DNA of 53,116 bases from Parcubacteria group bacterium GW2011_GWA2_49_9. GTDB taxonomy: Bacteria > Patescibacteriota > Minisyncoccia > Phycocordibacterales > UBA10002. The notes below the pieces were generated by a model. It saw only the letters and a program-made list of their open reading frames with translations, searched no databases and had not been told where the DNA came from. The stretch's first letter is position 1, and every line of letters begins with the position of its first letter. Positions 29,369 through 46,849 of this stretch are shown piece after piece. A program made the position numbers and the translations under genes. The stretch lies in assembly GCA_001004005.1 (NCBI GenBank), contig LCQF01000023.1:1-53116 (forward strand), written 5' to 3'.

Positions 29369-29770
29369 TATCTCCCTTACTAAAGGGAGTCACGAATTCT
29401 GATTCGGGGAGGGTTGTTATCCCCCTTAGTAAAGTGAAATAGTCGTAGACTAGGGGTGACCAGCCGTAGTTTGCGGCAAACTACGGCTGGTCGGGGGTTG
29501 TTTACACCCCTCCTCCGACGTGACGTCGGAGTGCTCCCTTTGCTAAGGGAGATTCGGCGGAGGCGGGTGTTGTATCTCCCTTACTAAATGGAGTCCCCGA
29601 GTCTGCGAGGGGGAGGGTTGTTATCCCCCTAGTCTACAGTCTACGACTGCAGGCTGACTACTTCGTTACAAAGGGGGTGACCAGCCGTAGTTTGCGGCAA
29701 ACTACGGCTGGTCGGGGGTTGTATCTCCCTTAGAAAAGGGAGTACCGCCGTCTTCGGTGGGGAGGGTTGT
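29369..29770. repeat. Tandem array of ~7 GC-rich two-hairpin units (mostly forward orientation)
   Basis: Constant parts are tatc[ct]cccttaNtaaaggg[ag]g and gg[ga]gggttgt. They alternate with variable palindromic stems (cacgaattctgattcgg; accagccgtagtttgcggcaaactacggctggt, seen twice; ccccgagtctgcgagggg; accgccgtcttcggtgg). Confidence 0.85.
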
Positions 29771-30118
29771 TCTTTTCTTTATCCACAACTCAATCTCTCG
29801 CAACACACTGTCCAAATTATTTCTTACCTCGCCTTCCGTAAACCGAAGAACAGTAACCCCCAGCTTTTCCAATAGTTGTTGTCGCCTTACGTCCTTTTCA
29901 ATTTTTGCATCATGCGTTATGCCATCTATTTCAATAGCAAGGTTGAGCGGGGCGCAATAAAAATCAACGATATAAGATAGAATCGGCTTTTGCCGCGAGA
30001 ACGGATAGCCAATCTTTTTACCCTTTAGTTCTTTCCACAGCAAGACCTCTCCGAGAGTGCCATTTTTTCGGAGGCCTTGAGATAATTTCTTGAGCTCTTG
30101 GTTGTAGTATATTTTCAT
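29702..30118 (-). CDS. DUF559 (Vsr-like) endonuclease-domain protein
   Basis: LWKELKGKKIGYPFSRQKPILSYIVDFYCAPLNLAIEIDGITHD...LGVTVLRFTEGEV. The C-terminal tail TEDGGTPFSKGDTTPDQP is read from repeat units. Confidence 0.8.
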   Translation of the reverse strand: MKIYYNQELKKLSQGLRKNGTLGEVLLWKELKGKKIGYPFSRQKPILSYIVDFYCAPLNLAIEIDGITHDAKIEKDVRRQQLLEKLGVTVLRFTEGEVRNNLDSVLREIELWIKKRTTLPTEDGGTPFSKGDTTPDQP

Positions 30119-30122
30119 AGGG

Positions 30123-30379
30123 TTATCTCCCCTAGTAAGGGGAGCACTGCCGTCTTCGGCAGGAGGGGTGTGGCAAAGGGAGAGGTTAAGACAACCCCCG
30201 CCGTATCAGAATACGGCACCCCCTTTATTAAGGGGGATACAACCCCCGACCAGCCGTAGTTTGCGGCAAACTACGGCTGGGCAACCCCTTTTCTAAGGGA
30301 GATACAACCCCCCCTCGCCGACGAGAGCACCTCATTTGCTGAACAACCCCCCAAGGCAGCCCCCTTTGTTAAGGGGGAT
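30123..30379. repeat. Array of GC-rich two-hairpin units (mostly reverse orientation), mirror of 29369-29770
   Basis: acaacccccgccgtatcagaatacggcaccccctttattaagggggat; acaacccccgaccagccgtagtttgcggcaaactacggctgggcaaccccttttctaagggagat; acaaccccccaaggcagcccccttt gttaagggggat. Confidence 0.85.
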
Positions 30380-30394
30380 AACCGCCATCGCACT

Positions 30395-31237
30395 TTACTG
30401 CGTCAGTATGTACCCCGCTTCCCCTTTCGCAAACAGTATGTTCTTCATCACAAGGTAATCTGAAATATCAGTAAAGGCGCGTACCAACTTTTCCACCGCG
30501 GCGGGATACGCGGTAGCGGTTGAGAGTGTTTGCACCGGGTCAGTCATAGCCTCGTAGCGCTTTATTCTGTCATCAAGATTGGCAAGGTCTATCCCATCCT
30601 CGTTCTCCAACGCGCGCTCAAAGATGATAAGTTCGCTCTCCCCGCCTTCTTTATGGGCGATAACGACGGCGCCTACGGCGTTCCCATACGCCCAGAGCGA
30701 GACATCGGTATCTTCGTCGGCAAAGACGAGCTCACTCTCGGTATATACCTTACTCGGCTTCGCCTCGGGATAACGCTGGATAAAGTCCTCAAGAAGTTTT
30801 TGCTCTTCTTCCGCGGTAAACGGCTGGCCGGACTGTTTGAGTGCCAGATATTTGGCGAACAATTCTCGGGAAAGGCGGTCGGTTTCGGTCCAATCACCCC
30901 CGCCCGGAACGATTTTTTGTTCAATCGTGCCTTTATCCAGCTCGTCTTCCGGCCCCTCCTTGGTAGGATTTCGGCCAAGCTTTATCTCTTCCCCATCTGT
31001 TGTGGTATCGCCATCGGTATCGGGATTGAGGACATCGGTATGCCACAGTTCTTCCTCCCAATCTTTCAAACCATCGTTATCTTGGTCGCGCGAAAGGACG
31101 GCCACCGCTTTTGAAGCCTGTTCGGGGGTCACGCGGCTGAATGTAATTTCCGAACGGCCGCTGTACATAAACCAAACACCGCCCCCGATAAGGGCGAGGA
31201 GGATGATGCCGATACTAATTTTTGTGCGGAAGGTCAT
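30395..31237 (-). CDS. Membrane-anchored protein with a thrombospondin-type-3-like Ca-binding repeat
   Basis: Start MTFRTKISIGIILLALIGGGVWF. DQDNDGLKDWEEELWHTDVLNPDTDGDTTTDGEE. Paralogue of 31391..32425. Confidence 0.65.
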   Translation of the reverse strand: MTFRTKISIGIILLALIGGGVWFMYSGRSEITFSRVTPEQASKAVAVLSRDQDNDGLKDWEEELWHTDVLNPDTDGDTTTDGEEIKLGRNPTKEGPEDELDKGTIEQKIVPGGGDWTETDRLSRELFAKYLALKQSGQPFTAEEEQKLLEDFIQRYPEAKPSKVYTESELVFADEDTDVSLWAYGNAVGAVVIAHKEGGESELIIFERALENEDGIDLANLDDRIKRYEAMTDPVQTLSTATAYPAAVEKLVRAFTDISDYLVMKNILFAKGEAGYILTQ

Positions 31238-31390
31238 AGTTTTTCTGATTCTCCCTTTCTTAAAGGGAGCACTTGAGTCTTCGAAAGGAGGGATTTTTCT
31301 AAATCCTCCGCCTCGCCGACTCGGCACCTCCTTAGTCTACGACTACAGGTTAACAGGAGGAATTAAGACCAGTATACCAAATTCTTCTCC

Positions 31391-32425
31391 TTACCGCGGA
31401 AACGAGAAAATACTTCCCGGTTCGCCTTGGCTGAAGCCCACACCTTCGTTGTATAAGAAGTCGGAAACGGCCACAAACGCCTTGGCAAGGGCAAGAGAAC
31501 TCTCACTGTACTCGGTTATATCGGGACCGGAAAGATAAGCTCCTGCTTTTGTGCCCGAAATAGTCTGAATACTTCTCGCGTAATTTTGATAGGCACGAAC
31601 AAGTGCCGAATGTACCGAAGAAGCCTTTTCTGGCGACACCACCGCCGCAATGTCCAGAGCAATCTGGTCGTACTTTTTCGCGAGTTTTCCGAAGCCTTGA
31701 AGTAGAGCCTCGGTCATTTTCGTATTTCCCGACGCACTGTTCCAAAAAGCAAGCTCGGCGTCCGAGTCGGTCGCGGCCGTTTGTATGGGGGCACCGAGCG
31801 CGTTCCCGAAACTATGCAGAGGATTTTCAGCCTGTGCCTGTTCCCTCCCCTCCGTTTCTAAGGAGGGGACTTGAGGGGTGGTGGTGTCCCCCTTAGAAAA
31901 GGGGGTGCCTCCGTCTGCGGAGGCGGGGGTTGTAGGAGTTGTAGTTTCTTGTGTTAAAAGGGGAACAACCCTCCCCGCCGAAGACGGCGGTACTCCCTTT
32001 AGTAAGGGAGTAACAACCCCCGTCCTCGCCGACTCGGACACCCCCTTTTCTAAGGGGGATTGCAGAACCATTACGGGAGTTTCCAGAGAATCATTCGGTC
32101 CTCCCTTTCTCGGATTTCTATGTGCCACCACTTCCGCTCCATCCGGCGTTCCGTCGCTGTCGGTGTCGGGTTTTTCGGGGTCCGTACCCCAAAGGGCTTC
32201 TTCCCAATCCGGAAGTCCATCGCTGTCTATGTCAAACGTGGAAAACGCTGGTTGTATCCCCCTTAGTAAAGTGGAATAGTCGTAGACTAGGGGTGCCGTA
32301 TTCCGATACGGCGGGGGTTGTTCGGTTCGACTCTTTGACAAAAACCAAATACCGAGTGCGACAAGAAAAAGGATTCCAATGAGAAGCATAACCTCGGTTA
32401 TGAGAGTACCGATAGATTTTTTCAT
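31391..32425 (-). CDS. Membrane-anchored TSP3-like repeat protein (paralogue) carrying ~70 aa of in-frame repeat-unit insertion
   Basis: DIDSDGLPDWEEALWGTDPEKPDTDSDGTPDGAE. Inserted segment PLEKGVSESARTGVVTPLLKGVPPSSAGRVVPLL...ASADGGTPFSKGD. Confidence 0.65.
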   Translation of the reverse strand: MKKSIGTLITEVMLLIGILFLVALGIWFLSKSRTEQPPPYRNTAPLVYDYSTLLRGIQPAFSTFDIDSDGLPDWEEALWGTDPEKPDTDSDGTPDGAEVVAHRNPRKGGPNDSLETPVMVLQSPLEKGVSESARTGVVTPLLKGVPPSSAGRVVPLLTQETTTPTTPASADGGTPFSKGDTTTPQVPSLETEGREQAQAENPLHSFGNALGAPIQTAATDSDAELAFWNSASGNTKMTEALLQGFGKLAKKYDQIALDIAAVVSPEKASSVHSALVRAYQNYARSIQTISGTKAGAYLSGPDITEYSESSLALAKAFVAVSDFLYNEGVGFSQGEPGSIFSFPR

Positions 32426-32443
32426 GTGTTACCATTGTAGTAT

Positions 32444-32920
32444 ATGTGCGCCTCTTTCGGAAAGAAATTACTAATTTTTTTGGCGATATGTTTACTCGCC
32501 ACTCCTCTTTCCGCATCCGCGATTTTTGACTTTGGCGGGCGGGTGACCAACTTTCCAGGGCTTCCCGGAGGCATTATGAGCGCGTTCGCGCTTCCCGCGT
32601 TTCCACCTCCGGGGGTGTTTAGTTTCTGGTATCCGGTGGGGCCGGGCTGTCTCAACGGCGTACAAGAAGTAAATCAGATACAGGCGGTCGGCGTGCCACA
32701 GCCCCCCATTCTCCTTCAGTTTGTAGGGCAATATACCTTTATGATGGGCCCCGCGATGCATCCGGGCCAGCAGATTCTCGGGAAATATGCTCCTATACCG
32801 ATGGTGTGCATGGCAAACTTCGTCTCTTGGATATATGTCGGATTCTCTCTGGTACCCGTGGTTATCCCGCTCCCGTTCTTCTTCGCCCCGCTCATCATCT
32901 ACAACGGGTCAACCATTTGA
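32444..32920 (+). CDS. Small secreted Pro/Gly-rich protein, function unknown
   Basis: Signal peptide KKLLIFLAICLLATPLSASA. Hydrophobic C-terminus. Confidence 0.5.
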   Translation: MCASFGKKLLIFLAICLLATPLSASAIFDFGGRVTNFPGLPGGIMSAFALPAFPPPGVFSFWYPVGPGCLNGVQEVNQIQAVGVPQPPILLQFVGQYTFMMGPAMHPGQQILGKYAPIPMVCMANFVSWIYVGFSLVPVVIPLPFFFAPLIIYNGSTI

Positions 32921-32943
32921 GATGAATATACGAAAATATGTAT

Positions 32944-32979
32944 CCCGTAGTGAGAAATTCTGATTTCTCTACTACTGGG
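32944..32979. repeat. Short CCCGTAGTGA...CTACTACTGGG hairpin
   Basis: cccgtagtgagaaattctgatttctctactactggg. Confidence 0.7.
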
Positions 32980-33004
32980 ACGAATTATACAAATATACGA
33001 ATGG

Positions 33005-33892
33005 CTACGAATAAGAAAGAAACAAGAAGAGGTGTTTCCAATCCGCGAGAGACAGATTTTCCGGACGCGCTTTCTCCGCGATGTTGCACTCTTTGAGCGT
33101 TGCGGAAGTAACCCCTACATTTGACGCGAGAAGTTTCCTCGGATGAGCGAATCCTTTTTTGAGGAAAGCAAAGAACTCCTGTTCGTTCATTCTCCCTTTC
33201 CTAAAGGGAGTACCGCCTTCCGAGGCGGGGAGGGATTTAAATCCTCCGGCCTCGCCGACTCGGCCACCTCCTTTTGCAAAGGAGGAATAAGAGTCGGTGC
33301 CCGTAAAAAATTCTTTTGAGATATGCTCAATCGCGATAATCGCGGAATCCACGTTCGGTGGCGGAGAAAAGGCTCCCGCCTTTACGGTACCGATATACTT
33401 CGGCGTCCCGTAGGCTTTGACACTTATGGAGAGAATGCTTTCTTTTTTATCGCTGGCGACTATTCTCCGTGCCACTTCTTTTTGTAAGAGCAGGACCATT
33501 GTGTGTGGCGGACACTCTGTCCCTTGGAGAAATTTCCGCAAAAATTGTCCCGTAATGTAATACGGCAAATTCGCCACGATTTTGTAGGGCTTCTTTGAAA
33601 ATTGAAAATTGAAAATTGAAAATTCCAATATGTCGGCATGGATGAGCTCAAACTCTCCTGAAGCGATTTCGGCTGCAAACTTCTGTTCCAACACGGGAAT
33701 AAGCCGGTCGTCTTTTTCAACCGCGATGACTTTTCCCGCTTGCTTGAGCAGTAATTCCGTAAGGACTCCCTCCCCCGGGCCTACCTCAAGCACGGTGTCG
33801 GCAGGCAGAAGCTGTGCCGCCCCCACTATTTTCTGGAGCGCGCCTGCGGAGCGAAGAAAATGTTGACCGAGCGTTTTTTTAGCAAAAACCAT
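33005..33892 (-). CDS. rsmA: 16S rRNA (adenine1518/1519-N6)-dimethyltransferase RsmA/KsgA, with two in-frame repeat insertions
   Basis: KKTLGQHFL, VLEVGPGEGVLT, KIVANLPYYIT. Insertions are gaaaatt x4 (33597-33624) and GC-rich units (33191-33285, SFAKGGGRVGEAGGFKSLPASEGGTPFRKG). Confidence 0.88.
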   Translation of the reverse strand: MVFAKKTLGQHFLRSAGALQKIVGAAQLLPADTVLEVGPGEGVLTELLLKQAGKVIAVEKDDRLIPVLEQKFAAEIASGEFELIHADILEFSIFNFQFSKKPYKIVANLPYYITGQFLRKFLQGTECPPHTMVLLLQKEVARRIVASDKKESILSISVKAYGTPKYIGTVKAGAFSPPPNVDSAIIAIEHISKEFFTGTDSYSSFAKGGGRVGEAGGFKSLPASEGGTPFRKGRMNEQEFFAFLKKGFAHPRKLLASNVGVTSATLKECNIAEKARPENLSLADWKHLFLFLSYS

Positions 33893-33993
33893 AATGCGAA
33901 TCTACGAATAGCTATGCGAATACTGCGAATGCCGATGAAGTCGGAATCTTATTCGTGGTATTCGCATTCTTCATTTGCGGTATTCGCATTATG
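33893..33993. repeat. AATGCGAAT-theme ~100-bp imperfect palindrome exactly filling the uvrD-stop to rsmA-start gap
   Basis: Starts cataatgcgaat... and ends ...attcgcattatg. The rsmA ATG itself pairs with the distal CAT. Confidence 0.8.
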
Positions 33994-36123
33994 TTAATCA
34001 AAAAAGATTATCTTCCCTCCCCCTTCCAGGTAATTTTCAGCCTGCAGGAATTCTTCGTCAATGTCAAAGATGAATTCCGACGGCACCGTTACTTGTCGTG
34101 AGCCGAAAATGGTTCGGACCCCGGCGTATGTCAGGAAGACTTTCTTCTTTGCTCTGGTGACTGCCACATAAAACAGGCGGCGCTCCTCCTCGGCCGCCCC
34201 TTCGTCAAGCGTTTCTCCCATACGTTCGTGCGGGAACAGCCCTTCTTCAAGGCCGGAAATAAATACATAGGTAAATTCAAGTCCTTTTGACGCATGCACC
34301 GTCATAAGCCGTACCGCGGGTTTCTCCTCTTGGAGCTCGTCCTGGTCGCTCTGAAGCGCTACGTCGGAAAGGAATTGATCTACTGCCGCAGTTCTGTCAT
34401 TCCCCTGCTCCCGCCCCTCTCCCTTTCGGGAGCTCCCCTCAAGCAGGGGAGCTGGGGAATCCAGTTCTTTTTGAGTCCCACTCTGGCCCCCCGCATAGTC
34501 TACGACTACTCCGCTCTGCTCCGTCGCGAGGATGACAGACGGCGTGGTTTCAGGGGTCACTGCGTCGTACCTCGTCGCGAAGGTTACGAGTTCCTTGATA
34601 TTTTCCAGACGTTCCTCGTCTTCCGAACCTCCTTTTTTGAGCTCCGCCTCAAGTCCGCTCGCGCTCACAATCCACTTAATAGCCTCCGAAAGCGGCAGAC
34701 TGGAAAGTCTTTGGCGGAATTCCGCTAGCAGTTTTTTAAACGTAGCAAGTTTTTCGCGCATGGCGGGCGGAAGCTCCTTTTCTTTCCCCGCAAAGATTTT
34801 GAGAAGCGTCACCTTGCCAATACCACGCGGAGGAACGTTGATAATCCGTCGCACGTCACCGATACTCTCGGGGTTTTCAGCGGCACGGACATAGGAAAGG
34901 ACATCTTTCACCTCTCTGCGTTCAAAAAAGCGCACTCCAAGAACCTGATACGGCACTTCCTCTCGGAGAAAAGCTTCTTCAAGCGCGCGGCTTTGGAAGT
35001 TCGCCCTGAACAGGACGGCAATAGCGGAGGGGGATGCGCCCTCGGCGATAAGCTGTTTGGAACGCTGTGCGATAAAGGAGGCTTCCTGCACTTCGTCATA
35101 GGCGGTAAACAGTCCCACCTTCTCCCCCTCCCCGTTTTTCGTGAAGAGCGTCTTCTCTCTCCGCATTTTATTTTTCTCAATAATGCGGTTTGCTACCGTG
35201 AGAATGGTCTGGGTAGAGCGGTAATTTTCTTCAAGCAGTACTATCTTTGACTTCGGATAGTCCTTTTCAAAATTCAGAATGTTTTTGATACTCGCTCCCC
35301 GCCAGCTGTAGATGTTCTGGTCAATGTCGCCGACTACCGCGATATTCTTCTCCGCGTCGGCAAGCGATTTCGCGATGATGTATTGCACGTGATTCGTGTC
35401 CTGATACTCGTCAATATGGATATAGCGCCAGCGTTTCTGATAGTGCGCACGCACCATCTCATCTTTCTGCAATAAGACGGCCGTTTTTAACAAAAGGTCG
35501 TCAAAATCAAGCGCCTTTTCTTTGCGGAGAATCGCCTCATACTTTTCCCAGATATCCGCGACTATCGCCGGATAGTAGTCTCCTTCGGAGCGCGCCTTAA
35601 ACTCTTCGCAGGTCACCATCTTCCCTTTCTCACGGCTAATTGACCCGAGAATTTTCCCCGGCTCAAACTGTTTCGGGTCAAGGTCCGTTTCCCTAATCGC
35701 CTCTTTGAGGGCACGTATAGAATCACTACGGTCAAAAATAGTAAACCGTTTGGAAAGACCGAGCCGCTGGCTGTTTTCTCGCAGAATATATACGCCAAGC
35801 GAGTGAAACGTACCGAGCCAAGGGAAGCTGATAGCTTTTAGGTTCTGACTTCTAGGATGTTCCATTCCCTCGGTTTGGCCTAGAAGCTGAAAGCTAGAAC
35901 CTAAAAGCTGGCGGACTCTCTCGCGCATCTCCTTCGCCGCTTTATTCGTAAAAGTGATGGCAAGTATTGACTCTGGAGCGACCCCCTGCTTAATGAGGTG
36001 AAGAATTCGGTGCGTGATTACCCGTGTCTTGCCCGCTCCCGCTCCGGCGACAATAAGAAGGGGGCCCTCGGTATGCTCCACGGCTTCCCGTTGCCGCGCA
36101 TTGAGTCCGAGAAGATAGTCCAT
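33994..36123 (-). CDS. pcrA: UvrD/PcrA-family ATP-dependent DNA helicase, with in-frame repeat insertions
   Basis: Start MDYLLGLNARQREAV. Walker A AGAGAGKTRV. DEYQDTN. VHASKGLEF. Insertions at 35827-35912 (CTAGAAS hairpin) and ~34397-34515 (MITE half-copy plus TAGTCTACGACTA). Confidence 0.9.
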   Translation of the reverse strand: MDYLLGLNARQREAVEHTEGPLLIVAGAGAGKTRVITHRILHLIKQGVAPESILAITFTNKAAKEMRERVRQLLGSSFQLLGQTEGMEHPRSQNLKAISFPWLGTFHSLGVYILRENSQRLGLSKRFTIFDRSDSIRALKEAIRETDLDPKQFEPGKILGSISREKGKMVTCEEFKARSEGDYYPAIVADIWEKYEAILRKEKALDFDDLLLKTAVLLQKDEMVRAHYQKRWRYIHIDEYQDTNHVQYIIAKSLADAEKNIAVVGDIDQNIYSWRGASIKNILNFEKDYPKSKIVLLEENYRSTQTILTVANRIIEKNKMRREKTLFTKNGEGEKVGLFTAYDEVQEASFIAQRSKQLIAEGASPSAIAVLFRANFQSRALEEAFLREEVPYQVLGVRFFERREVKDVLSYVRAAENPESIGDVRRIINVPPRGIGKVTLLKIFAGKEKELPPAMREKLATFKKLLAEFRQRLSSLPLSEAIKWIVSASGLEAELKKGGSEDEERLENIKELVTFATRYDAVTPETTPSVILATEQSGVVVDYAGGQSGTQKELDSPAPLLEGSSRKGEGREQGNDRTAAVDQFLSDVALQSDQDELQEEKPAVRLMTVHASKGLEFTYVFISGLEEGLFPHERMGETLDEGAAEEERRLFYVAVTRAKKKVFLTYAGVRTIFGSRQVTVPSEFIFDIDEEFLQAENYLEGGGKIIFFD

Positions 36124-36220
36124 AGTTGCACCACTATAACAGAAAGAAAAATCCGAAGCACGAACTTGTGAAAAGCACGAAGCACGAAGCACGAAATCCT
36201 AAAGAATTAACATTTCTTAA

Positions 36221-36283
36221 TGTCATCCTCGTGAAAACGGGGGACCAGAGTTTTCTGGATTCCCGCCTTCGCGGGAACGACAG
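36221..36283. mobile_element. MITE-like element, TGTCATYCC family (short copy B)
   Basis: tgtcatcctcgtgaaaacgggggaccagagttttctggattcccgccttcgcgggaacgaca. Confidence 0.5.
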
Positions 36284-36378
36284 AAGACTGTCGTTTGTTT
36301 CGGATTTCGATATTCGGATTTCGAATTTAGATTGAGTTTTTACTCAATCTCCGCTATCCACAGGGTACCGGTTTTCCT

Positions 36379-36407
36379 TTGACATTACACCCCCGTTCAC
36401 CTATAGT
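36379..36407 (+). promoter_or_regulatory. Sigma-70-type promoter (TTGACA - 17 nt - TATAGT)
   Basis: ttgaca 36379-36384, 17-nt spacer, tatagt 36402-36407. It lies ~310 nt upstream of the LysM/M23 gene. Confidence 0.65.
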
Positions 36408-36715
36408 ATAAGGGTCCTGGCAGACTGGGCGATTGATAAAGATGGCCTTGTAAGGCCGTTTTTAACGGAAGGAACGGCAAGAGTGACTACCGAGAGCAGA
36501 GCTTTTAAGCAATCTAATCAGTGCGTACATCATCTTTTCGGGAACCCATGTAATAGCTCGTAGGGTTTTCGCGTTTTTGATAGCACGGTTGGTTTCGGGA
36601 AAGTTCTCCTTTCGGCCTTTCTTTTATAGCGACACTCCCTCACAATTCATTACAACGAACCCATCTCACCTCAGAGGTTCGAAGCGCCACGGCTCACTAT
36701 ATACGCCCTGTAGTA
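36408..36715 (+). ncRNA. Long structured 5' leader; candidate c-di-AMP (ydaO/yuaA-type) riboswitch
   Basis: Segments ACGGAAGGAACGG, GCAAUCUAAUC, CGGGAACCCA and AAUAGCUCGUAGGG resemble recalled ydaO core blocks (ACGGAGGAACC, UAAUC, GGGGACCCA, AGCUAAC..CGUAAG). The downstream gene class fits. Not verified by a covariance model. Confidence 0.35.
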
Positions 36716-37705
36716 GTGTGGCTTTTTGTGTGTTTGGTAGCCTTGGCCCCTTGGGGTGCGCATGCGGGAGTTCTTTCGTTTATCGGAAACCTTTTCGCGA
36801 AAGAAGCCGAGGCTGAAGTCACGTTTTCGCCCGTTAACTCCCAGACTATCGGGCTTCTCGCGCCGGCGCTCAACCCGGACCCGAACCCTGCCAAAGGAGG
36901 CGGAGATATCACGGTAGTTGGAGGAGTCGCGCTTCTTTCTGAAACCGGACCCGCAGGGACGCTTGCAGATATTGAAGAAAACCAGAGTGGTGTTATCAGC
37001 ATTTACGTGGTTCGTGAAGGCGACACGCTTAGTGCTATCGCTAAGATGTTTGGTGTTACCGTGAGTACGATTGCGTGGGCGAACGATATCTCTAGAAGCG
37101 TCATCCGACCGGGACAGACGCTTATTATTTTACCGATTTCCGGCGTCCGGCACACCGTGGTCAAGGGTGACACCATACAGAGTATTGCCAAAAAATATAA
37201 GGCTGACTTGACTGAAATCACGCAATACAATCATTTTGGCGAAAATACGAAGCTCGCCATAGGCGATATTGTACTTGTACCCGATGGTGAAATCGCTCCT
37301 CCGCCTTCAAATGTGGCCAGTCGTCCGGCAATCCTCCGTGGCGCGGGCGGTCCGAGCTATGACGGCTACTATCTTCGCCCCCTTATTGGCGGACGAAAGA
37401 CGCAGGGTCTTCACGGTTACAATGGTGTGGATATTGCAAGCTATCTTGGCGCCCCGATTCTCGCTTCAGCAGCCGGCACTGTCATTATTGCCAGAACATC
37501 AGGTTGGAATGGAGGATATGGAAACTATATCGTCATTGCGCACCCGAACGGTACGCAAACGCTCTACAGCCACCTTTCAAGCCTCGCCGTCACGGCGGGT
37601 GAATCGGTTACCCGCGGCGAAATCATCGGCTATATGGGTTCTACGGGACGTTCTACTGGCACACACCTCCACTTTGAAGTCCGCGGAGCTAAAAACCCCT
37701 TTTAG
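36716..37705 (+). CDS. LysM-domain M23-family peptidoglycan metalloendopeptidase
   Basis: Two LysM repeats (YVVREGDTLSAIAKMFGV...; HTVVKGDTIQSIAKKYKA...). M23 motifs HGYNGVD and GSTGRSTGTHLHFE. GTG start. Confidence 0.88.
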   Translation: MWLFVCLVALAPWGAHAGVLSFIGNLFAKEAEAEVTFSPVNSQTIGLLAPALNPDPNPAKGGGDITVVGGVALLSETGPAGTLADIEENQSGVISIYVVREGDTLSAIAKMFGVTVSTIAWANDISRSVIRPGQTLIILPISGVRHTVVKGDTIQSIAKKYKADLTEITQYNHFGENTKLAIGDIVLVPDGEIAPPPSNVASRPAILRGAGGPSYDGYYLRPLIGGRKTQGLHGYNGVDIASYLGAPILASAAGTVIIARTSGWNGGYGNYIVIAHPNGTQTLYSHLSSLAVTAGESVTRGEIIGYMGSTGRSTGTHLHFEVRGAKNPF

Positions 37706-37775
37706 CCTCACATGCCCCCCTCCCCCTTTCTAAGGGGGAGAATTGAAGAGGGGGTTGTGACTCTCAATGGAGCAG

Positions 37776-37796
37776 ACCGCGGAAACGCGGTTTTTT
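37776..37796 (+). terminator. Rho-independent terminator after the M23 gene
   Basis: accgcg-gaaa-cgcggt followed by TTTTTT. Confidence 0.75.
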
Positions 37797-38049
37797 CGTT
37801 CTCGCTCTTCCTCCCCTCCTCAGTTGAGGTGAGAAGCGAATACGTGAAGCTTCGCAAGACCTTGAGCGCTCCGTCTTCGGAGAGAGCGAAAGGTGTATAG
37901 TTTCTGTAAGAAAGGGAATTAAAAGGGGTGGTGGTGTTATCCCCCTTAGTAAAGGGGGTGCCGCATTCGATGTGGCGGGGGTTGTTTCTTTTTCTTTCAA
38001 GGCGCTACGCAGTCCTATATACAGAGGACTTACGCATTTCGTGCGTTTT

Positions 38050-38155
38050 TGTCATTCCAGCGACGGAGCAGTAGCGGAGTAGTCGTAGACTAAGCTGGAA
38101 TCCAGTATAGGGCTGTTTTTTAGGCTCTGGATTCCACTTTTCAGTGGAATGACAC
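38050..38155. mobile_element. MITE-like element, TGTCATYCC family (copy C), with an embedded TAGTCGTAGACTA module
   Basis: tgtcattccagcgacgg...gtagtcgtagactaagctggaatccag...ctctggattccacttttcagtggaatgacac. The right flank resembles the right flank of copy A. Confidence 0.55.
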
Positions 38156-38176
38156 TGATTGCGTATGTCCTAATAC

Positions 38177-38206
38177 AAAAAACCGAGGTCTGCACCAGCG
38201 CAGACC
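38177..38206 (-). terminator. Rho-independent terminator (minus strand) after the small basic ORF
   Basis: ggtctgc-N6-gcagacc followed on the minus strand by tcggTTTTTT. Confidence 0.65.
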
Positions 38207-38230
38207 CCATAACACATTTCGACAGTCGCT

Positions 38231-38623
38231 TCACTCCCCTACGCGAGTGAACCAACCCCTCCTCCCCGCTCTCCCGAGGCTATCTAGCATACAGCCGATT
38301 TTCTTTCGGACCGTTTTTACTAGTTCACCATTTTCGTGAGAAGCGTTTCGGCATTGCCACCGTTCGTCAACGCGTAATTCCTTTCCCCCTTTTTTTGTTC
38401 GGGGTGGAGTGTAATCAAGGCGGTCAACGCGGAGCCTGCGTTTATTATGCACGACGCGGAAATGACAGTGTTTTTCTTTAGTTGGGGCAGAAGTGCGTTT
38501 GGTCCCGAACGGAATTTCTCGGAAGACAAACAGTTCTCTGCCGACGCGGAAACTTTTGCCGTCCAGTTTGCCTACAGTGCACCCGAACACGCCGATTCTA
38601 ATTTCAGTTTTTTTGTTCTTCAC
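38231..38623 (-). CDS. Small, very basic protein of unknown function
   Basis: Strong SD AAGGAGG 5 nt before an in-frame GTG at 38623. 130 aa. Terminator downstream. No family recognised. Confidence 0.45.
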   Translation of the reverse strand: MKNKKTEIRIGVFGCTVGKLDGKSFRVGRELFVFREIPFGTKRTSAPTKEKHCHFRVVHNKRRLRVDRLDYTPPRTKKGGKELRVDERWQCRNASHENGELVKTVRKKIGCMLDSLGRAGRRGWFTRVGE

Positions 38624-38745
38624 CGACTCCTCCTTGGTTGGTTGTGAGCTGTTGTTTGCAAGTAGCATACTCCTTTTTTCCGATATGCAAACCGGAAGGC
38701 ACGACTTTTCGCAAGAAACTTGACATACAATCAATTGCCGCGGCC

Positions 38746-39443
38746 CTAAAAGCTGTGGCGATTTTCTTTGTAAATGCGAAAACCTATTTTACTTGAGGGG
38801 GTTGTTGGAGGGGTAAGTAGTCTTTTGATGGCATCAAACACGATTTTAAACTGCTGGTCGTATTTATTTTCCATTTTCTCAATTTTTATGCGCAGTTCTC
38901 GGTTAGAGGCGATAAGTTCTCGGAGCTTGGTGAAAGTTCTAATGATTTGGATGTTAACCTGAACCGCTCGCTTGCTGTTCAGGACACTTGAAAGCATCGC
39001 GACGCCTTGCTCGGTGAAGGCATAAGGTAGTTTTCTTCGCCCACCATAACTTGAAGTCGCAATTTGCGACTTCAAGTTATGTCTATTCAAGGTCGCAATT
39101 TGCGACCTTGAAAAAGCATCTGATTCAAATTTAGTAAGAGCCTATCCACTATCTAATGCCTAGGCGAAATGTTCAAAATTCGTTGCGAAAATTGAGGATT
39201 TTGAGGAAGCATATCGAGATATGCTGACGAAATGCGGTTAGATAGTGGATAGGCTCTAAGTTGAAACATAAAATCAATCGGAAATCTTTCGCTGTTTCTT
39301 CGCACAGCTTCATTGAGCCTTCGCGTCTCCACTCCATATAATTCCGCCAAGTCGCGGTCCAACATGACTTTCTTCCCACGGATAAAAAATATCTTGCTCT
39401 CTATCTTGTCTGGTATCACAGTCAGCATTTGTATGCGATTCAT
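38746..39443 (-). pseudogene. ORF6N-domain (KilA-N/Rha-like) protein gene split by a 120-bp MITE
   Basis: N-part is ...IFFIRGKKVMLDRDLAELYGVETRRLNEAVRRNSERFPIDFMFQL. C-part is ...SQIATSSYGGRRKLPYAFTEQGVAMLSSVLNSKRAVQVNIQIIRTF. Deleting 122 bp restores one frame. Confidence 0.85.
39137..39256. mobile_element. 120-bp MITE with ~19-20-bp terminal inverted repeats and a putative TA target duplication
   Basis: agagcctatccactatctaa (39137-39156) pairs with ttagatagtggataggctc(t) (39238-39257). TA at 39135-39136 and at 39257-39258. Confidence 0.75.
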
Positions 39444-39479
39444 TTTCTTTTCTGTAAGCTAACAGCTAGAACCTAAAAG

Positions 39480-41057
39480 CTATAAGCTATTCCCCAACTG
39501 CTTCGGCCGATACTGCAACGCTTCCATTAGGTCGCCGGTCTGTACATCGTCGTGCCCCTCAAGGTCGGCGACGGTGCGGGCAAGCTTGATAAGGCGATGG
39601 TAGGAACGGGCAGAAAGGTCGTGCTTCTTGGCGGCGAGATTGAGAGCTTGTTTAACATCATCGGAAAGAGGAATTGCGACAGCGATGTCCCGCGGGCCAA
39701 CATCACTGTTGGTTTTGAACGGCAGTTTTAATTTTTTATACCGTTCCTCGGCTCGCGCACGAGCGACCGATACTTTTTTGCGTACCGCTTCACTTGTTTC
39801 TTCACTTCCCCGCCCCTCGGTGAGCTTCTCATGCTCTACGATGGACACTTCGGTCCACAAGTCAATGCGGTCTACAATCGGGCCGGAAATTTTTCGCTTG
39901 TAGCGGTCAATCTGGTGCTGTCCGCAACTGCACACTTTTCCTTTCACCCCGTTATTCCCGCAGGGACAGGGATTCATGGCGGTAATCAATGTGAAATGCG
40001 CGGGAAATTGCGCCGAACCTTTGACGCGAGCGACGGAAACAACACGGTCTTCAAGCGGTTGGCGGAGTGCGTCAATCACCCTTCGTTCAAATTCGGGAAA
40101 TTCATCCAAGAAAAGCACTCCTCGGTGCGCGAGGGTGATTTCTCCCGGCTTGGGAATGGAACCACCACCCACAAGCGCGATATATGAGGCAGTATGATGC
40201 GGCGCGCGAAATGGCGGATAGGTGATAAGAGGTTCTTGAAGTGCTCCCGCGACCGAATGAATGCCGGTCACTTCAAGAGCCTGTTCAATATCCAGCGGGG
40301 GCAATATGGAAATAAAAGCTTTGGCGAGAAGTGTCTTCCCTGTGCCCGGTGGTCCCCACATCGCGATGTTATGTCCACCCGCCGCGGCGATTTCAAGTCC
40401 GCGTTTCGCCGTTCTCTGTCCCTTCACGTCGGCAAAATCCACCTGATACTCCCGCGTTCCCACTTCAAATGTGGTTAGTGGAACCGGTTTCATTTTCCGC
40501 TTCTGAATAAACGGGCGCTCATCATCGGGGAGGATATCCTTCTCTGTAAGGTGTGCGGAGAGGTCCCAAAGATTTTTCACTCCATAGACGTCAATACCAT
40601 CAATAAGCGCCGCCTCTTTCGCGTTTTCAAGCGGGACATACACTTCTTTAAAACCGGAACGTTTCGCTTCGCGGACAATCGGCAAGACTCCATCTATTCC
40701 CTGCACCATACCGTCAAGTGAAAGTTCTCCGACAAACAATTTTCCCTTCACGTCCGCGGGAAGGCATTTGGAGGCGATTAAGTAGCCGACCGCCATCGGA
40801 AGGTCAAAGCTCGGCCCCTCTTTCTTCGTGTCCGCGGGAGCGAGCGAAATGACGATTTTGTGATTTTTCTGTTTCGGCGACTTAAATCCGGTATTTTTTA
40901 TCGCCGCGCTGATGCGGTCTTTCGCTTCTTCCACCGCTTTGTCGGGGAGGCCCACTATGGAAAACGCGTTGAGGCCCTTAGAGAGGTCAACCTCAACGCG
41001 TACCAGAGAAGTCTTCAGGAGATGGACTTGAGCGGAACTGACAGTTGCGAAACTCAT
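39480..41057 (-). CDS. comM: YifB/ComM-family Mg-chelatase-like AAA+ ATPase
   Basis: N-terminal Lon-protease-like domain, Walker A GPPGTGKTLLAKAF, Walker B VLFLDEFPEF. Start at MSFATVSSAQV. Confidence 0.88.
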   Translation of the reverse strand: MSFATVSSAQVHLLKTSLVRVEVDLSKGLNAFSIVGLPDKAVEEAKDRISAAIKNTGFKSPKQKNHKIVISLAPADTKKEGPSFDLPMAVGYLIASKCLPADVKGKLFVGELSLDGMVQGIDGVLPIVREAKRSGFKEVYVPLENAKEAALIDGIDVYGVKNLWDLSAHLTEKDILPDDERPFIQKRKMKPVPLTTFEVGTREYQVDFADVKGQRTAKRGLEIAAAGGHNIAMWGPPGTGKTLLAKAFISILPPLDIEQALEVTGIHSVAGALQEPLITYPPFRAPHHTASYIALVGGGSIPKPGEITLAHRGVLFLDEFPEFERRVIDALRQPLEDRVVSVARVKGSAQFPAHFTLITAMNPCPCGNNGVKGKVCSCGQHQIDRYKRKISGPIVDRIDLWTEVSIVEHEKLTEGRGSEETSEAVRKKVSVARARAEERYKKLKLPFKTNSDVGPRDIAVAIPLSDDVKQALNLAAKKHDLSARSYHRLIKLARTVADLEGHDDVQTGDLMEALQYRPKQLGNSL

Positions 41058-41065
41058 ATAGAAAG

Positions 41066-41165
41066 TACTAATCAACTAATTTGGGTACTAATCTACAAAT
41101 GCTTACTAATCCGAAGAGTCTTATTCGTAAGCATTAGCAGATTCGTCTCATTCGCAGATTGGTAC
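41066..41165. repeat. ACTAATC-theme ~100-bp imperfect palindrome filling the dksA-stop to comM-start gap
   Basis: gtactaatcaactaatttgggtactaatctacaaatgcttactaatccgaag / cttattcgtaagcattagcagattcgtctcattcgcagattggtac. Confidence 0.75.
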
Positions 41166-41528
41166 TTACTTTCCCATATGCGCCTTGCATGTCGTCGCCG
41201 CGGGATTTGCCGAAAGTCGGTCAGCTTCAATTTCTTTCTCGCAGACGGCGCAGTGCCCGTAGCTTCCGTTTTCTACGCGCTCAAGAGCGTCTTTTACCTC
41301 ACCGAGACGTGATTCCAGCTGGCGCACGATCGCGGTGTTTTCTTCAAACGATTCAATCTTTTCCGCCGCTTCATCCCTGTCGGGTGAAGCACTGTCGCGG
41401 TCGGAGGCAACCGGCTCCCAATCACCGACTGTACCGGGGCTTCGCCTTCCCACGGTGCCGAGCTCTTTCTCAACAAGGTCTTTCTCCGTAAGGAGTTTCT
41501 TTTTGAATGTAGTGGTGTCTAGGGTCAT
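41166..41528 (-). CDS. DksA/TraR-family zinc-finger protein
   Basis: Start MTLDTTTFKKKLL. Coiled-coil region. C-terminal HCAVCEKEIEADRLSANPAATTCKAH. Confidence 0.75.
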   Translation of the reverse strand: MTLDTTTFKKKLLTEKDLVEKELGTVGRRSPGTVGDWEPVASDRDSASPDRDEAAEKIESFEENTAIVRQLESRLGEVKDALERVENGSYGHCAVCEKEIEADRLSANPAATTCKAHMGK

Positions 41529-41687
41529 AACGACATGATACCATACGGTATCAAAATACGAAATTCTAATATCGAAATCCGAAACAAATTCCAATTTCTA
41601 AATTTCAAGATCTGAAACAAGGCTCGTTTACGTTTTCTTATTTGAGATTTAGATATTGTCTAGAATCTCGGATTTCGTGCTTCGGAT

Positions 41688-42653
41688 TTATTTCAACCGT
41701 CCTCCCCCTGCTTTGCCAATAAGGGTTTTCAGTGTTTCCTCATTCGTCGTGAGGACAAGCGTTTGTTTATCAATAAATGAATAGAGAAAGACAATCGCAT
41801 CTTGCGGTCCAAACGCGGCACGCGCGTCTTTGTTTCGTATCACGACGTCTTTGAAGATAAGTTGGTTTTGGAGCGCCTCGGCAGTTGTGCTTCCCACATT
41901 CGCCAGAAGTTCACGTGGATTCACCCCAAACAGCGGGCCAATATCATCCAAGAGCGTTGTTTCAAAGGAAAGCATCGCAGGAAACGCGTTATCGTATGAA
42001 GAAACGCTAAAGAGGAGAAACGGTTGCCCTCCTTGGAACCCGTGGAGACCAAACACAGGAGTGTTTCCTAGCGCTCTCGTAAGTGCGGATGGAGCAGTCG
42101 CTTGAAGCAAGCTAAACAAATTCGGTGTCGTTAGGGTGGCTCCGCCGATTGTCACGGGAATCGCGCGCAGCTCATTTTGTGGAACCGAAATTGCCTCTAT
42201 GCTTTTACGCAAGAGGGTTATAGCTCCCGCCCTCGTTTCTTTTCCTTGGAGCGCAATCGCGGTTGTCGCTTTGGGAGTTACTTGCGTGACGGGTGCTGTT
42301 ATGGGAGGCGGCGTAGTCCGGAAAAAGAAATAAGCCCCGATTCCGATTCCGACGCCGATTCCGACGACGACAAAAAGAATAAGCCGCCAGTTCCAATGAG
42401 CTTGAATCGGGAGAGCATTTCCAATACTGAATATTTTGGTCGGAGAAGAGGATTCAACCTGTTCCTCTTGTTGCCTCGCCCGCTCACCTTCAGCGAGCGC
42501 GATGGTGGTTTTTGAGACATGCTGTTTCTGCATCATTTCTTCCACGTCGCTCTGGTACGTCCGAATACGCGGAAGTTCATCCGAAGTGTTCGGCTGTGGA
42601 GGAAGTTCATTGTTTGGGTCCGATGCCGGTTGTCGAAATTGTTCTGGAGGCAT
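41688..42653 (-). CDS. Single-pass membrane protein, function unknown
   Basis: Disordered N-terminus, TM LILFVVVGIGVGIGIGAYFFF, ~200-aa ectodomain. Confidence 0.55.
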   Translation of the reverse strand: MPPEQFRQPASDPNNELPPQPNTSDELPRIRTYQSDVEEMMQKQHVSKTTIALAEGERARQQEEQVESSSPTKIFSIGNALPIQAHWNWRLILFVVVGIGVGIGIGAYFFFRTTPPPITAPVTQVTPKATTAIALQGKETRAGAITLLRKSIEAISVPQNELRAIPVTIGGATLTTPNLFSLLQATAPSALTRALGNTPVFGLHGFQGGQPFLLFSVSSYDNAFPAMLSFETTLLDDIGPLFGVNPRELLANVGSTTAEALQNQLIFKDVVIRNKDARAAFGPQDAIVFLYSFIDKQTLVLTTNEETLKTLIGKAGGGRLK

Positions 42654-42762
42654 ATCTGTATTGTCGCAATAAATACATCTCGAATCAAACTCTCGTTCAA
42701 ATACGAATCATCCCGAAACTAATTCGGGATGATTCGGGCGACTATTCTGGACTAACTGGCTC

Positions 42763-44928: not shown

Positions 44929-44934
44929 AAAAGA

Positions 44935-45095
44935 CCACGGAAGCGACACGGAAGGAAGAACACGGAAGCGACACGGAACCTTCCTATTCCCCCTTTATAA
45001 AAGGGAGCACTGCCGTCTTCGGCAGGAGGGATTTAGTTCCGATTCTGTTCCGCGTTGCTTTGGTTCTGTGTCAGTTCTGCGTATTGAGGCTGACC
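44935..45095. repeat. CACGGAA-theme inverted repeat with a GC-rich two-hairpin unit in its loop
   Basis: cacggaagcgacacggaaggaagaacacggaagcgacacggaacc ... ccccctttataaaagggagcactgccgtcttcggcaggaggg ... gttccgattctgttccgcgttgctttggttctgtg. Confidence 0.65.
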
Positions 45096-45232
45096 TCTAG
45101 ATTGGAGACTTGAACGCACTGTTCAGGTCTGTGTATCCAGAGACCAACCGTTACTGATAATTGACGTCAGTCTAGCACAGTTTTCCCCCTTGTAATATTT
45201 GACAACGTCGCCATCTACTTGTAATTTAAACA

Positions 45233-46834: not shown

Positions 46835-46849
46835 AAGAGCTATACTAGT

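Follow-up and report, generated by a model that had tools for sequence, protein, structure and literature searches.

Family-1 palindromes between host genes

The window analyzed here covers positions 1-53,116 of contig LCQF01000023.1 of Parcubacteria group bacterium GW2011_GWA2_49_9, a Parcubacteria/Taylorbacteria-like CPR genome from groundwater. Its 101-nt gap between uvrD/pcrA and rsmA (33893-33993) consists of a single long imperfect hairpin. The AATGCGAAT theme of this hairpin identifies it as a member of a sequence family, hereafter family 1 (ATAATGCRAAT...ATTYGCATTAT). The element starts 1 nt past the uvrD TAA and its terminal AT supplies part of the rsmA ATG; as a first-pass annotation of the sequence had noticed, the CAT directly after the TAA pairs with this start codon. 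The window carries three such empty copies and one copy whose arms enclose a nuclease gene:

33891-33992, minus strand: cargo-less family-1 palindrome at the uvrD-to-rsmA junction (folding z -4.1 sense, -6.5 antisense; covariance model score 72.5 bits)
33994-36123, minus strand: uvrD/pcrA helicase, the gene upstream of this element
33005-33892, minus strand: rsmA, 16S rRNA dimethyltransferase, the gene downstream of this element
19887-19995, minus strand: cargo-less family-1 element at junction J1, from a 619-aa gene to PrgI (80.4 bits)
9678-9773, plus strand: cargo-less family-1 element between yidC and jag/khpB (77.8 bits)
19112-19580, minus strand: family-1 arms around a GxxExxY (PF13366/TIGR04256) nuclease gene at junction J2

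The J1 element lies 2 nt past the upstream stop and 4 nt ahead of the PrgI ATG, in agreement with the spacing first noted for the hairpin at 19883-19997. At 9678-9773, the yidC reading frame terminates at a TAA within the left arm. The left arm of the J2 cassette, which is located about 300 nt from the empty J1 copy, encodes the N-terminus of the GxxExxY protein.

Each family-1 arm contains four GCRAAT motifs at 11-nt intervals, giving an 11/22-nt periodicity, and represents a direct 2 x 22-nt repeat of AATGCRAATRCYRCRAAT without internal hairpin and without GTAG. Elements measure 93-131 nt; in an alignment of 12 copies (93-109 nt, mostly 93-96 nt), the arms of about 42 nt were 80.8% complementary. 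A pattern search recovered 16 copies with unrelated flanks, and a covariance model extended this to 27 loci, again with unrelated flanks, confined to the window, one related bin, Hainich groundwater contigs and the loci L105 and L106. The same model yielded no match in ten other CPR loci or in nine non-CPR controls. Three of 13 copies were inverted. Since the element ends (AT-AATGC...GCATT-AT) are themselves palindromic (AT or TA), a possible 2-nt AT/TA target-site duplication is indistinguishable from the palindrome, and the flanks contain no longer direct repeat.

Further families and themes

Additional palindromes with other arm motifs are distributed across the window, several of them around small genes:

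17947-18429, minus strand: family-2 arms (ACTAATC / CCAATCTGCGAAT) around a second GxxExxY gene, junction J3
41058-41165, minus strand: cargo-less family-2 element across the dksA-to-comM junction
16025-16125, minus strand: cargo-less CTAGAAS hairpin (7-nt period) at junction J4, after the VirB4-like ATPase gene
10278-10709, minus strand: CTAGAAS-type arms around a PF05635/TIGR02436 four-helix-bundle ('23S rRNA intervening sequence protein') gene
41529-41687, minus strand: AAATCCGAAGCACGAA-theme hairpin, from a 321-aa gene to dksA (z -3.8)
36160-36335, no strand: low-complexity arms (CACGAAG / GGATTTCG) around small GC-rich hairpins in the divergent uvrD/LysM gap
44935-45095, no strand: CACGGAA-theme arms around two GC-rich hairpins in the divergent gap upstream of the PNPase gene
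2044-2137, no strand: CTAATT-theme palindrome in a divergent gap (z -3.8 / -5.5)
8351-8420, plus strand: CTAGAAS-type repeats upstream of rnpA (z 0.2)
46247-46352, no strand: perfect inverted repeat of 17 nt (CCAGCCGTAGTTT) at the termini, its arms separated by 72 nt (z about 0.4-0.9)

Family 2 and the CTAGAAS theme thus each occur in the window both empty (41058 and 16025) and with cargo (GxxExxY at 17947-18429, flanked by a TraC-like gene and the VirB4-like ATPase; PF05635 at 10278-10709). The PF05635 gene itself spans 10288-10668 (PF05635 match, E 1.6e-37). At J4, the stop codon TAG runs into the first repeat unit, and the 41529-41687 hairpin is likewise flush with the upstream stop, leaving about 46 nt ahead of the dksA start. 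The CACGGAA theme also bounds a GxxExxY cassette at J3 of L108. In groundwater metagenomes, the arms of 36160-36335 are hugely over-represented: they reached a depth of about 10,000 versus about 5 in the flanks, and other loop contents were found between the same arms. The repeat at 46247-46352 belongs to a separate GC-rich family rather than to the low-complexity hairpins; this family also flanks a DUF559 gene at 29702-30118. CTAGAAS-type repeats were further observed in frame inside uvrD (35826-35909) and inside the 619-aa gene.

The short-motif, often heptamer-like periodicity initially described for the arms is genuine, with periods of 7 nt in four themes (CTAGAAS, GGATTTC, CTAATTT and ACGCTAA) and of 11/22 nt in GCRAAT. 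The themes are not locus-specific, as had been assumed, but represent dispersed sequence families.

Folding and prevalence of inverted repeats

Comparing each of the 11 originally listed loci with 200 dinucleotide shuffles, nine folded better than their shuffles on at least one strand (z <= -2.4), eight of them with z <= -3.6. Folding was no better than in shuffles at 46257-46352 (z 0.4-0.9) and at 8351-8420 (z 0.2), where a weak hairpin emerged only once the flanks were included. The initial statement that the elements occupy same-strand junctions has to be restricted, as 2044-2137, 36160-36335 and 44935-45095 lie in divergent gaps. Rfam 15, applied to the whole window at gathering score, returned three tRNAs only, and a permissive search of 33850-34040 gave nothing but chance-level miRNA/snoRNA matches (all E >= 0.14).

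On a broader scale, unbranched stem length from MFE folds did not separate real gaps from shuffles. We therefore used a Watson-Crick inverted-repeat alignment score with a cut-off of z > 4 in gaps of 50-300 nt. Gaps above this cut-off made up 48% in the window, 47% in loci of the same lineage, 33% in other CPR loci and 14% in non-CPR loci, compared to about 1% in coding controls.

Orthologous junctions reveal insertion at stop codons

The elements are insertions that belong to dispersed families, and the upstream stop codon is their anchor point. The uvrD-rsmA junction illustrates this: it measures 33 nt and is element-free in L101, whereas the window, L102, L103 and L104 carry four different families at this position. 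Junctions of 3-8 nt in L103 correspond to hairpin gaps of 60-290 nt elsewhere. In L109 and L110, J2/J3 are element-free and measure 19, 2 and 17 nt, and the upstream gene ends at the same stop position as it does where these junctions are occupied. Overall, unoccupied orthologous junctions in relatives spanned 2-33 nt.

Within a conserved secretion operon compared across eight genomes, 28 of 31 junctions were occupied, either by an empty hairpin, a GxxExxY cassette or a PF05635 cassette. The left arm began between -6 and +9 nt from the upstream stop in 27 of the 28 occupied junctions, and the right end lay within 12 nt of the start codon in 19 of 28. The precise stop-to-start boundaries reported before were hence confirmed at the stop codon, but are looser at the start codon. 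As tight operon junctions extend over just 2-19 nt when unoccupied, an inserted element seems to span the whole distance between stop and start. One and the same junction accommodates unrelated sequences of 87-640 nt in either orientation.

DNA reads over 32900-36400 contained no usable hairpin-less allele, the contigs being short, of low depth and swamped by repeats of other organisms. The window and its strain variant L001 differ by a 60-nt indel and a scaffold gap, neither of which involves the hairpins. We also suspected that the family-2 cassette at J3 had split a VirB4 gene, since the ORFs on either side match neighbouring portions of VirB4 models. The 120 closest homologues of the C-terminal part, however, are all 586-620 aa long (nearly all about 600), and a separate TraC-like gene precedes the VirB4-like ATPase in every relative compared. 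The two-gene state is thus ancestral, and gene splitting was rejected.

Empty and gene-bearing forms share their arms

The empty and the cargo-bearing forms within each genome have common arms. This supports the initial suggestion that the hairpins might be the empty form of gene-bearing cassettes: arms, ends and mostly also orientation are common to the hairpins and the GxxExxY/PF05635 cassettes of the same genome, and one orthologous junction can hold an empty hairpin in one genome and a cargo-bearing element in another. L105, for instance, carries family 3 at J1 (two copies), J2 (with cargo) and J3 (empty), while L107 carries the GAATTATGAAT theme at J1 (with PF05635 cargo) and J3 (empty). 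PF05635 cargo was found at J1-J4 in relatives.

Arms diverge along with their cargo. The J2 GxxExxY genes fall into two pairs: those of the window and L106, with family-1 arms and 77% protein identity, and those of L105 and L107, with family-3 arms and 82% protein identity. From one pair to the other, protein identity drops to 60-67%, and the arms are related yet distinct. Cargo also moves between slots. The PF05635 protein at J2 of L108 is 77% identical to the one adjoining jag in L107, whereas the PF05635 genes of the window and L107 in this jag-adjoining slot are unrelated (28% identity) and L105 has a GIY-YIG gene there. DUF559 or GIY-YIG genes occur in similar slots. Themes are not strictly specific for one type of cargo, given that PF05635 arms are built from CTAGAAS in the window, from CACAAAAC/CCAAAAA in L101 and from GAATTATGAAT in L107.

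Together, these observations make it probable that the hairpins are cargo-less, non-autonomous, MITE-like members of palindrome-bounded selfish cassettes of Parcubacteria-type CPR.

Host function, growth in place and termination as alternatives

The hairpins could instead be intercistronic RNA elements selected by the host, serving either as RNase III sites that separate cistrons or as aids to re-initiation from stop to start, with the cargo genes as mere passengers. CPR/Patescibacteria genomes are among the smallest known, and such genomes should shed useless DNA, so that the high occupancy of the secretion operon junctions and the flush placement against the stop codon would be readily explained by a benefit to the host. 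The start codon is positioned within the stem base at rsmA, L096, L084 and L085, and SD motifs precede only six of 49 starts; a buried start would accordingly need help. This SD scarcity, which the first-pass annotation had noted at the junctions, is correct but a trait of the genome in general rather than of the junctions. In the same line, the core of the dksA-comM element is about 90% identical to its orthologous copy in L102, compared to 52% identity at comM third codon positions, and the J4 heptamers of the window and L107 differ by matching changes on both arms (AGCTTCT/AGAAGCT versus AGGCTCT/AGAGCCT), which indicates either maintained pairing or homogenized arms. All copies possess a short reading frame, which begins at the terminal ATG and in most of them traverses the element. 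Its end, however, falls anywhere from the loop to 60 nt beyond the element, and this variability does not support a translational relay through the mini-ORF as a conserved feature. Across the 12 aligned copies of family 1 we found no compensatory covariation (80.8% of cells paired versus 83.1% in shuffles), the invariant columns correspond to the motifs AATGC.AAT and C..C.AAT, and where columns vary, a change on one arm is not matched on the other. Sequence is conserved here, not pairing. RNAalifold slid to another register, because the arm motif recurs every 11 nt, and reported no compensatory pairs. Moreover, in 19 of 23 elements it is the antisense strand rather than the mRNA that gives the better fold, J2/J3 are element-free in L109 and L110, and a given junction may hold unrelated sequences of very different length in both orientations. 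For the mRNA roles proposed at the outset, namely processing, start-codon occlusion, translational coupling and segmental stability, the testable evidence leans against a selected stem, and we consider host-selected RNA elements unlikely. Still, the near-saturated occupancy (28/31) and the dksA-comM conservation would likewise be consistent with a host function instead of pure selfishness.

A different scenario dispenses with mobility altogether: slippage would expand a motif next to the stop codon, and template switching (quasi-palindrome correction) would then copy the other arm. Growth in place would account for arms made of short motifs in tandem at a 7- or 11-nt period, for themes that often echo the adjoining stop (TAG followed by CTTCTAG, TGA by ATTA..TGAATTA, TAA by CTGTAAC), for different themes at one junction in different genomes and for repeat units changing in concert on both arms. 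It cannot, however, yield dispersed families. Near-identical 95-nt elements with conserved asymmetries of arms and loops recur in several genomes, at 27 loci whose flanks are unrelated, the same arms also bound cargo genes, and a single family occupies three junctions of one operon in L105. We thus regard growth in place as quite improbable as an origin, although it may contribute to arm turnover. Least credible of all are ordinary transcription terminators or attenuators between genes. Hairpins do follow directly after stops, and some right flanks are T-rich (ATTTTTATG, ACTTTTATG), but intrinsic terminators combine a GC-rich stem with a T-run, whereas the stems here comprise 40-45 imperfect base pairs with an AT-rich base. 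A terminator scan of 30000-47000 called no full hairpin on the minus (gene) strand, both orientations occur, and the hairpins are located inside conserved operons, ahead of genes that require expression.

A model of palindrome-bounded cassettes

According to the selfish-cassette reading, a full element would comprise a left arm, a small cargo gene and a right arm, the cargo being a GxxExxY PD-(D/E)XK nuclease or a PF05635 four-helix-bundle '23S rRNA IVS protein'. The empty form would retain the two arms and a short loop, that is, an imperfect palindrome of 90-120 nt. Arms would consist of a short motif at a fixed period (GCRAAT per 11 nt or a heptamer such as CTAGAAS), and these periodic motifs give rise to the observed themes, which would be inherited as the mark of a family and diverge in step with the cargo. 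Elements would insert, or replace one another, directly behind the upstream stop at tight operon junctions, with nuclease-driven homing, gene conversion or mobilization in trans as candidate modes of movement. To our knowledge, GxxExxY and PF05635 proteins are not among the known transposases. Elements are probably co-transcribed with the host operon, and may be tolerated because the upstream stop and the short native leader or ATG are left intact. RNase III cleavage of the stem, as in rRNA intervening sequences, or a ribosome relay across it might further mitigate their cost.

A bolder reading, which we put forward tentatively and consider doubtful, is that the elements form a new class of mobile DNA, which would integrate right behind stop codons at operon junctions and freely swap arms and cargo in a slot already filled. 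They would escape the host at the RNA or translation level, their stem being excised from the polycistronic mRNA or crossed by ribosomes so that the operon is still expressed. GxxExxY and PF05635 proteins would be the long-sought activities that move and service them, with the arm motifs as binding sites.

We did not find a description of such elements in CPR in the literature searched. If they are selfish cassettes, they would represent a major, apparently undescribed part of CPR genomes: in the secretion operon compared here, nearly every junction carries a palindromic insert of 90-640 nt, with a turnover much faster than that of the host genes. Annotation errors would follow, including false long ORFs and wrong start codons. 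GxxExxY and PF05635, two very common 'hypothetical' families, would gain a tie to a concrete genetic element, and the cassettes would be linked to rRNA intervening sequences, which still lack an explanation. Should the stems be processed or bypassed in mRNA, they would add a new layer of operon expression in genomes that hardly use SD sequences.

Comparison with known repeat elements

The elements resemble several known systems in structure and placement. Their closest structural relatives include the ORF-containing 23S rRNA intervening sequences of the Leptospira/Coxiella type, which encode the PF05635 'S23p' protein and whose inverted repeats form a stem within a longer transcript. The likeness, a PF05635 gene inside an inverted-repeat stem, holds for cargo-bearing forms only. 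Unlike these intervening sequences, all copies lie between or within protein-coding genes rather than in rRNA helices, the window holds no rRNA, and most elements are empty or bear a nuclease gene.

Palindromic repeats are likewise tolerated in the very small genomes of Rickettsia, where such elements (RPE) are defined by in-frame insertion into genes. The in-frame CTAGAAS-type copies in uvrD and the 619-aa gene recall this, whereas the elements described here are intergenic and have cargo-bearing relatives. Cyanobacterial short tandemly repeated repetitive (STRR) sequences are arrays of 7-nt units between genes, and their lineage is also rich in GxxExxY and four-helix-bundle genes. Unlike STRR, arrays here are paired inversely into one hairpin, end flush to stops and have cargo-bearing counterparts. 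Among cyanobacteria, heptamer repeats are mentioned for Nostoc (PMC4692102).

Like MITEs, the elements are small and non-coding with terminal inverted repeats and occur in dispersed copies with unrelated flanks. The Correia elements of Neisseria, intercistronic MITEs that RNase III binds and can cut (PMC2649163; reviewed in PMC10969869 and PMC2229807), share with them a length of about 100 nt, inverted-repeat ends, many dispersed intergenic copies and presence/absence differences between related genomes, a likeness drawn from structure and placement rather than from sequence relatedness. As the elements here are presumably co-transcribed, they would form long RNA hairpins as Correia elements do, and by analogy RNase III cleavage would be the obvious model for any RNA-level effect. 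In contrast to Correia elements and MITEs, we found no transposase-encoding parent with the same ends; the cargo-bearing relatives encode GxxExxY PD-(D/E)XK nucleases or PF05635 four-helix-bundle proteins. Periodic short-motif arms, the many unrelated families replacing each other at one junction and the anchoring at stop codons further set the elements apart from Correia elements.

TIGR arrays consist of tandem stem-loop or dual-repeat units beside a Tas gene (TIGR-Tas, PMC12045711). This identity was rejected, as the hairpins occur singly, scattered among housekeeping genes, and no Tas-type gene was present among the scanned subset of window proteins. REP sequences and REPINs are short palindromic extragenic repeats, non-autonomous and thought to be served by a single-copy, repeat-flanked RAYT gene (PMC3116915). 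The elements described here would similarly behave as non-autonomous mobile DNA in the form of short palindromic extragenic repeats, but family-1 and family-2 arms are not small hairpins and lack a GTAG-type head, and the genes found with them, of PD-(D/E)XK or four-helix-bundle type, occur in multiple copies. REPs may have a nearer counterpart in the GC-rich CCAGCCGTAGTTT hairpins of this genome.

Long palindromes at the gene junctions of a Parcubacterial genome

The 101-nt spacer between uvrD/pcrA and rsmA is a single long imperfect hairpin, reading TAA-C-ATAATGCGAATACC...GATTCGCATTAT-G in gene sense, with the rsmA start codon within its outermost CAT/ATG pair. The flanking genes are as follows.

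33994-36123, minus strand: uvrD/pcrA, upstream of rsmA
33005-33892, minus strand: rsmA, downstream of uvrD/pcrA

The first-pass annotation had reported such low-complexity palindromes at 11 loci, and its observation proved real, except at two loci and in calling the themes locus-specific. Compared with 200 dinucleotide shuffles, nine of the 11 loci folded significantly better, the exceptions being 8351-8420 and 46257-46352; three of the loci, described as same-strand junctions, lie in divergent gaps. When inverted-repeat alignments in gaps of 50-300 nt were scored against shuffles (cut-off z > 4), the share of gaps above the cut-off was 48% for the window, 47% for same-lineage loci, 33% for other CPR loci and 14% for non-CPR loci, as compared to roughly 1% for coding controls. 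The absence of Shine-Dalgarno sequences, reported for starts at hairpin junctions, is not special to them, since such motifs are rare at every start (6 of 49 candidate starts in the whole window, several of the 49 stemming from doubtful ORFs); translation in this organism seems to start largely without Shine-Dalgarno pairing.

The comparative data set comprised the window (53 kb, GC ~50%) and 111 fetched loci, labelled with L numbers. Contigs 99.9% identical to the window come from Rifle-type groundwater metagenomes, and the nearest relatives of its RsmA, UvrD and VirB4 are Parcubacteria/Paceibacterota, several labelled Candidatus Taylorbacteria. Within the rsmA coding region, a heptamer is also repeated perfectly in tandem, (TTGAAAA) x 4.3 (33595-33624), and its word depth in metagenomes is very high.

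The themes are dispersed repeat families

Rather than being locus-specific, the themes represent dispersed families. At the AATGCGAAT loci (family 1), each arm carries two AATGCRAATRC copies exactly 22 nt apart, so that GCRAAT recurs at every 11 nt. Scanning public metagenome contigs for the exact pattern returned 17 stretches, none overlapping the window, which together with the window copies yielded 16 elements that share their ends (ATAATGC...GCATTAT), their canonical length (93-96 nt) and their left/right-arm asymmetries, but have unrelated flanks. Twelve copies served to build a covariance model, which matched 27 loci, all in the window, one related bin (Ga0075991), Hainich groundwater contigs, L105 and L106, with no matches in 10 other CPR loci, L101-L104, L107-L111 or nine non-CPR controls. 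The ACTAATC theme (family 2) occupies the dksA-comM junction in both the window and L102, the uvrD-rsmA junction of L104, the first junction (J1) of a type IV secretion operon in L106, and a different context in L096. More distant CPR loci also contain low-complexity palindromes, with other themes. The CACGAAG / GGATTTCG theme of window 36176-36400 is extremely widespread, as indicated by an arm word depth of ~10,000, against ~5 for flanking unique sequence, in four groundwater or soil metagenomes (~2000-fold over-representation in groundwater metagenomes) and by numerous different loop contents between the arms.

Individual loci showed further arrangements. In L088, a 116-aa gene (895-1245) has a family-1 hairpin on either side (803-898 and 1244-1337), both directly abutting the respective stop or start, and a third copy at 4903-5005 makes three in 7.9 kb. 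L097 (315-420) and L093 (797-900) carry, within long open reading frames, the left arm of a family-1 element and a small GC-rich hairpin; if the downstream peptide in L097 (...KVTDDIESLKFNT), which we take to resemble leucyl-tRNA synthetase, is that enzyme, 315-420 would, on reading the sequence, be an in-frame half-element.

Empty hairpins and gene-bearing cassettes share arms

The suggestion that the hairpins are the empty form of gene-bearing cassettes was supported by empty and cargo forms with common arms, represented in the window by the following features.

19887-19995, minus strand: empty family-1 hairpin, with a cargo-bearing copy 300 nt further on
17947-18429: second GxxExxY gene, inside family-2 arms
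10278-10709: PF05635 four-helix-bundle gene, inside CTAGAAS arms

The cargo-bearing family-1 copy encloses a GxxExxY (PF13366/TIGR04256) nuclease gene; its arms are, by eye, ~85-90% identical to those of the empty neighbour, and its left arm encodes the N-terminus of the protein. Similarly, successive junctions (J1-J3) of the secretion operon in L105 carry family-3 arms as two tandem copies (J1, filled by these hairpins at 2947-3182), as cargo plus an extra empty copy (J2) and as an empty copy (J3), and the GAATTATGAAT arms of L107 hold PF05635 cargo at J1 and are empty at J3.

The hairpins are insertions anchored at stop codons

The surroundings of uvrD-rsmA are syntenic in four relatives (L101-L104), with differing junctions.

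State of the uvrD-rsmA junction in the window and four relatives
L101: 33 nt, no element
Window: 101 nt, family 1
L102: 125 nt, CTAATTT theme
L103: 247 nt, ACGCTAA arms with GC-rich interior
L104: 91 nt, family 2

At junctions where the L103 spacers measure 3-8 nt, the other genomes have hairpin gaps of 60-290 nt. The L104 UvrD orthologue (4069-7176, 1035 aa) contains Hint/intein domains, indicating an intein that the window's UvrD lacks.

Complementarily, we compared the secretion operon (large gene - J1 - PrgI - J2 - TraC-like - J3 - VirB4-like ATPase - J4) across eight genomes with ATPases 84-96% identical. Empty hairpins or cassettes, the latter with a GxxExxY or a PF05635 gene, occupied 28 of 31 junction states; the only bare junctions were J2 (19 nt) and J3 (2 nt) of L109 and J3 (17 nt) of L110, where the upstream stop codon falls at the same residue as in occupied genomes. 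Among the 28 occupied junctions, 27 had the outer left-arm end at -6 to +9 nt relative to the stop, and 19 had the right end no more than 12 nt from the start; a short pyrimidine-rich native leader often remained in this last interval. The hairpins are thus insertions anchored at the stop codon. The earlier claim that they fill gaps from stop to start accordingly holds on the stop side and more loosely on the start side, and such filling mostly results from elements inserting immediately after the stop, where the original junction was only a few nucleotides long.

The bare J2 spacer of L109 (GTCTGATATACTATGCCAT, 977-995) resembles collapsed family-3 termini (ATAC..ATGC / CAT..ATG) and may be what an excised element left behind; judged by ATPase identity, L109 is nested among genomes bearing a J2 cassette. 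The window's PrgI (19581-19660, minus strand) has 87 aa, as compared to 132-137 aa in seven relatives, and shows an internal deletion with a frameshift; the conserved C-terminus ...LTWALDINQNVKR* is readable in another frame and stops 2 nt before the J2 cassette.

Selfish cassettes or host-selected RNA structures

The hairpins are best explained, with reasonable though not full confidence, as derivatives, devoid of cargo, of selfish cassettes that are bounded by palindromes and insert behind stop codons. The main rival, a host-selected RNA role, draws on the near-saturated occupancy, the flush position of the elements and the J4 heptamer unit, whose two arms show matching differences when the window is compared with L107. 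Template-switch correction of quasi-palindromes can alter both arms alike, however, and offers another cause for this difference. Moreover, family-1 arms lack compensatory change: three cells were altered on both sides versus 8.9 expected, pairing did not exceed column shuffles (80.8% versus 83.1%), and the invariant columns are sequence motifs, with variable columns altering independently on either arm. Selection for an mRNA stem also predicts better folding of the mRNA strand, but the antisense strand folded better in 10 of the 13 copies of family 1 and in 9 of 10 additional hairpins at junctions, giving 19 of 23 cargo-less elements (including those at window 9678, 16025 and 33891 and in L084-L110), in which mismatches take the form A.C in the mRNA strand and G.U in the antisense strand. 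Three of the 13 family-1 copies run opposite to the genes, and a short reading frame with a variable end point runs from the terminal ATG in every copy. Taking both sides together, we consider a host-selected RNA role unlikely.

In their behaviour the elements resemble MITEs, for example Correia elements (PMC2649163; PMC10969869; PMC2229807), yet they fall outside the strict definition because their cargo-bearing relatives have no transposase and no target duplication is resolvable. The cargo forms are similar to ORF-containing 23S rRNA intervening sequences, but lie outside rRNA. REPINs (PMC3116915), TIGR arrays (PMC12045711) and intrinsic terminators were rejected as identities; none of the hairpins looks like a terminator, and none matched an Rfam family. 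Our literature searches retrieved no account of elements of this kind from CPR.

Descent and turnover of the cassettes

The J2 GxxExxY proteins form an orthologous set, 77% identical between the window and L106 (both with family-1 arms), 82% between L105 and L107 (both with family-3 arms) and 60-67% between the two groups, whose arms differ despite being related. The arms therefore evolve in step with their cargo, and both change much more quickly than the host ATPase. Cassette replacement also happens: L108 carries at J2 a PF05635 gene 77% identical to the jag-adjoining one of L107, and at J3 an unrelated GxxExxY gene (35% identity, CACGGAA arms). The jag/R3H-adjoining slot holds the PF05635 gene at 10278-10709 in the window, an unrelated PF05635 gene in L107 (11229-11591, 28% identity) and a GIY-YIG nuclease gene in L105 (11201-11482). 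Finally, the core of the dksA-comM family-2 hairpin is ~90% identical between the window and L102, as against 52% at comM third codon positions, indicating that this sequence is either constrained or recently spread.
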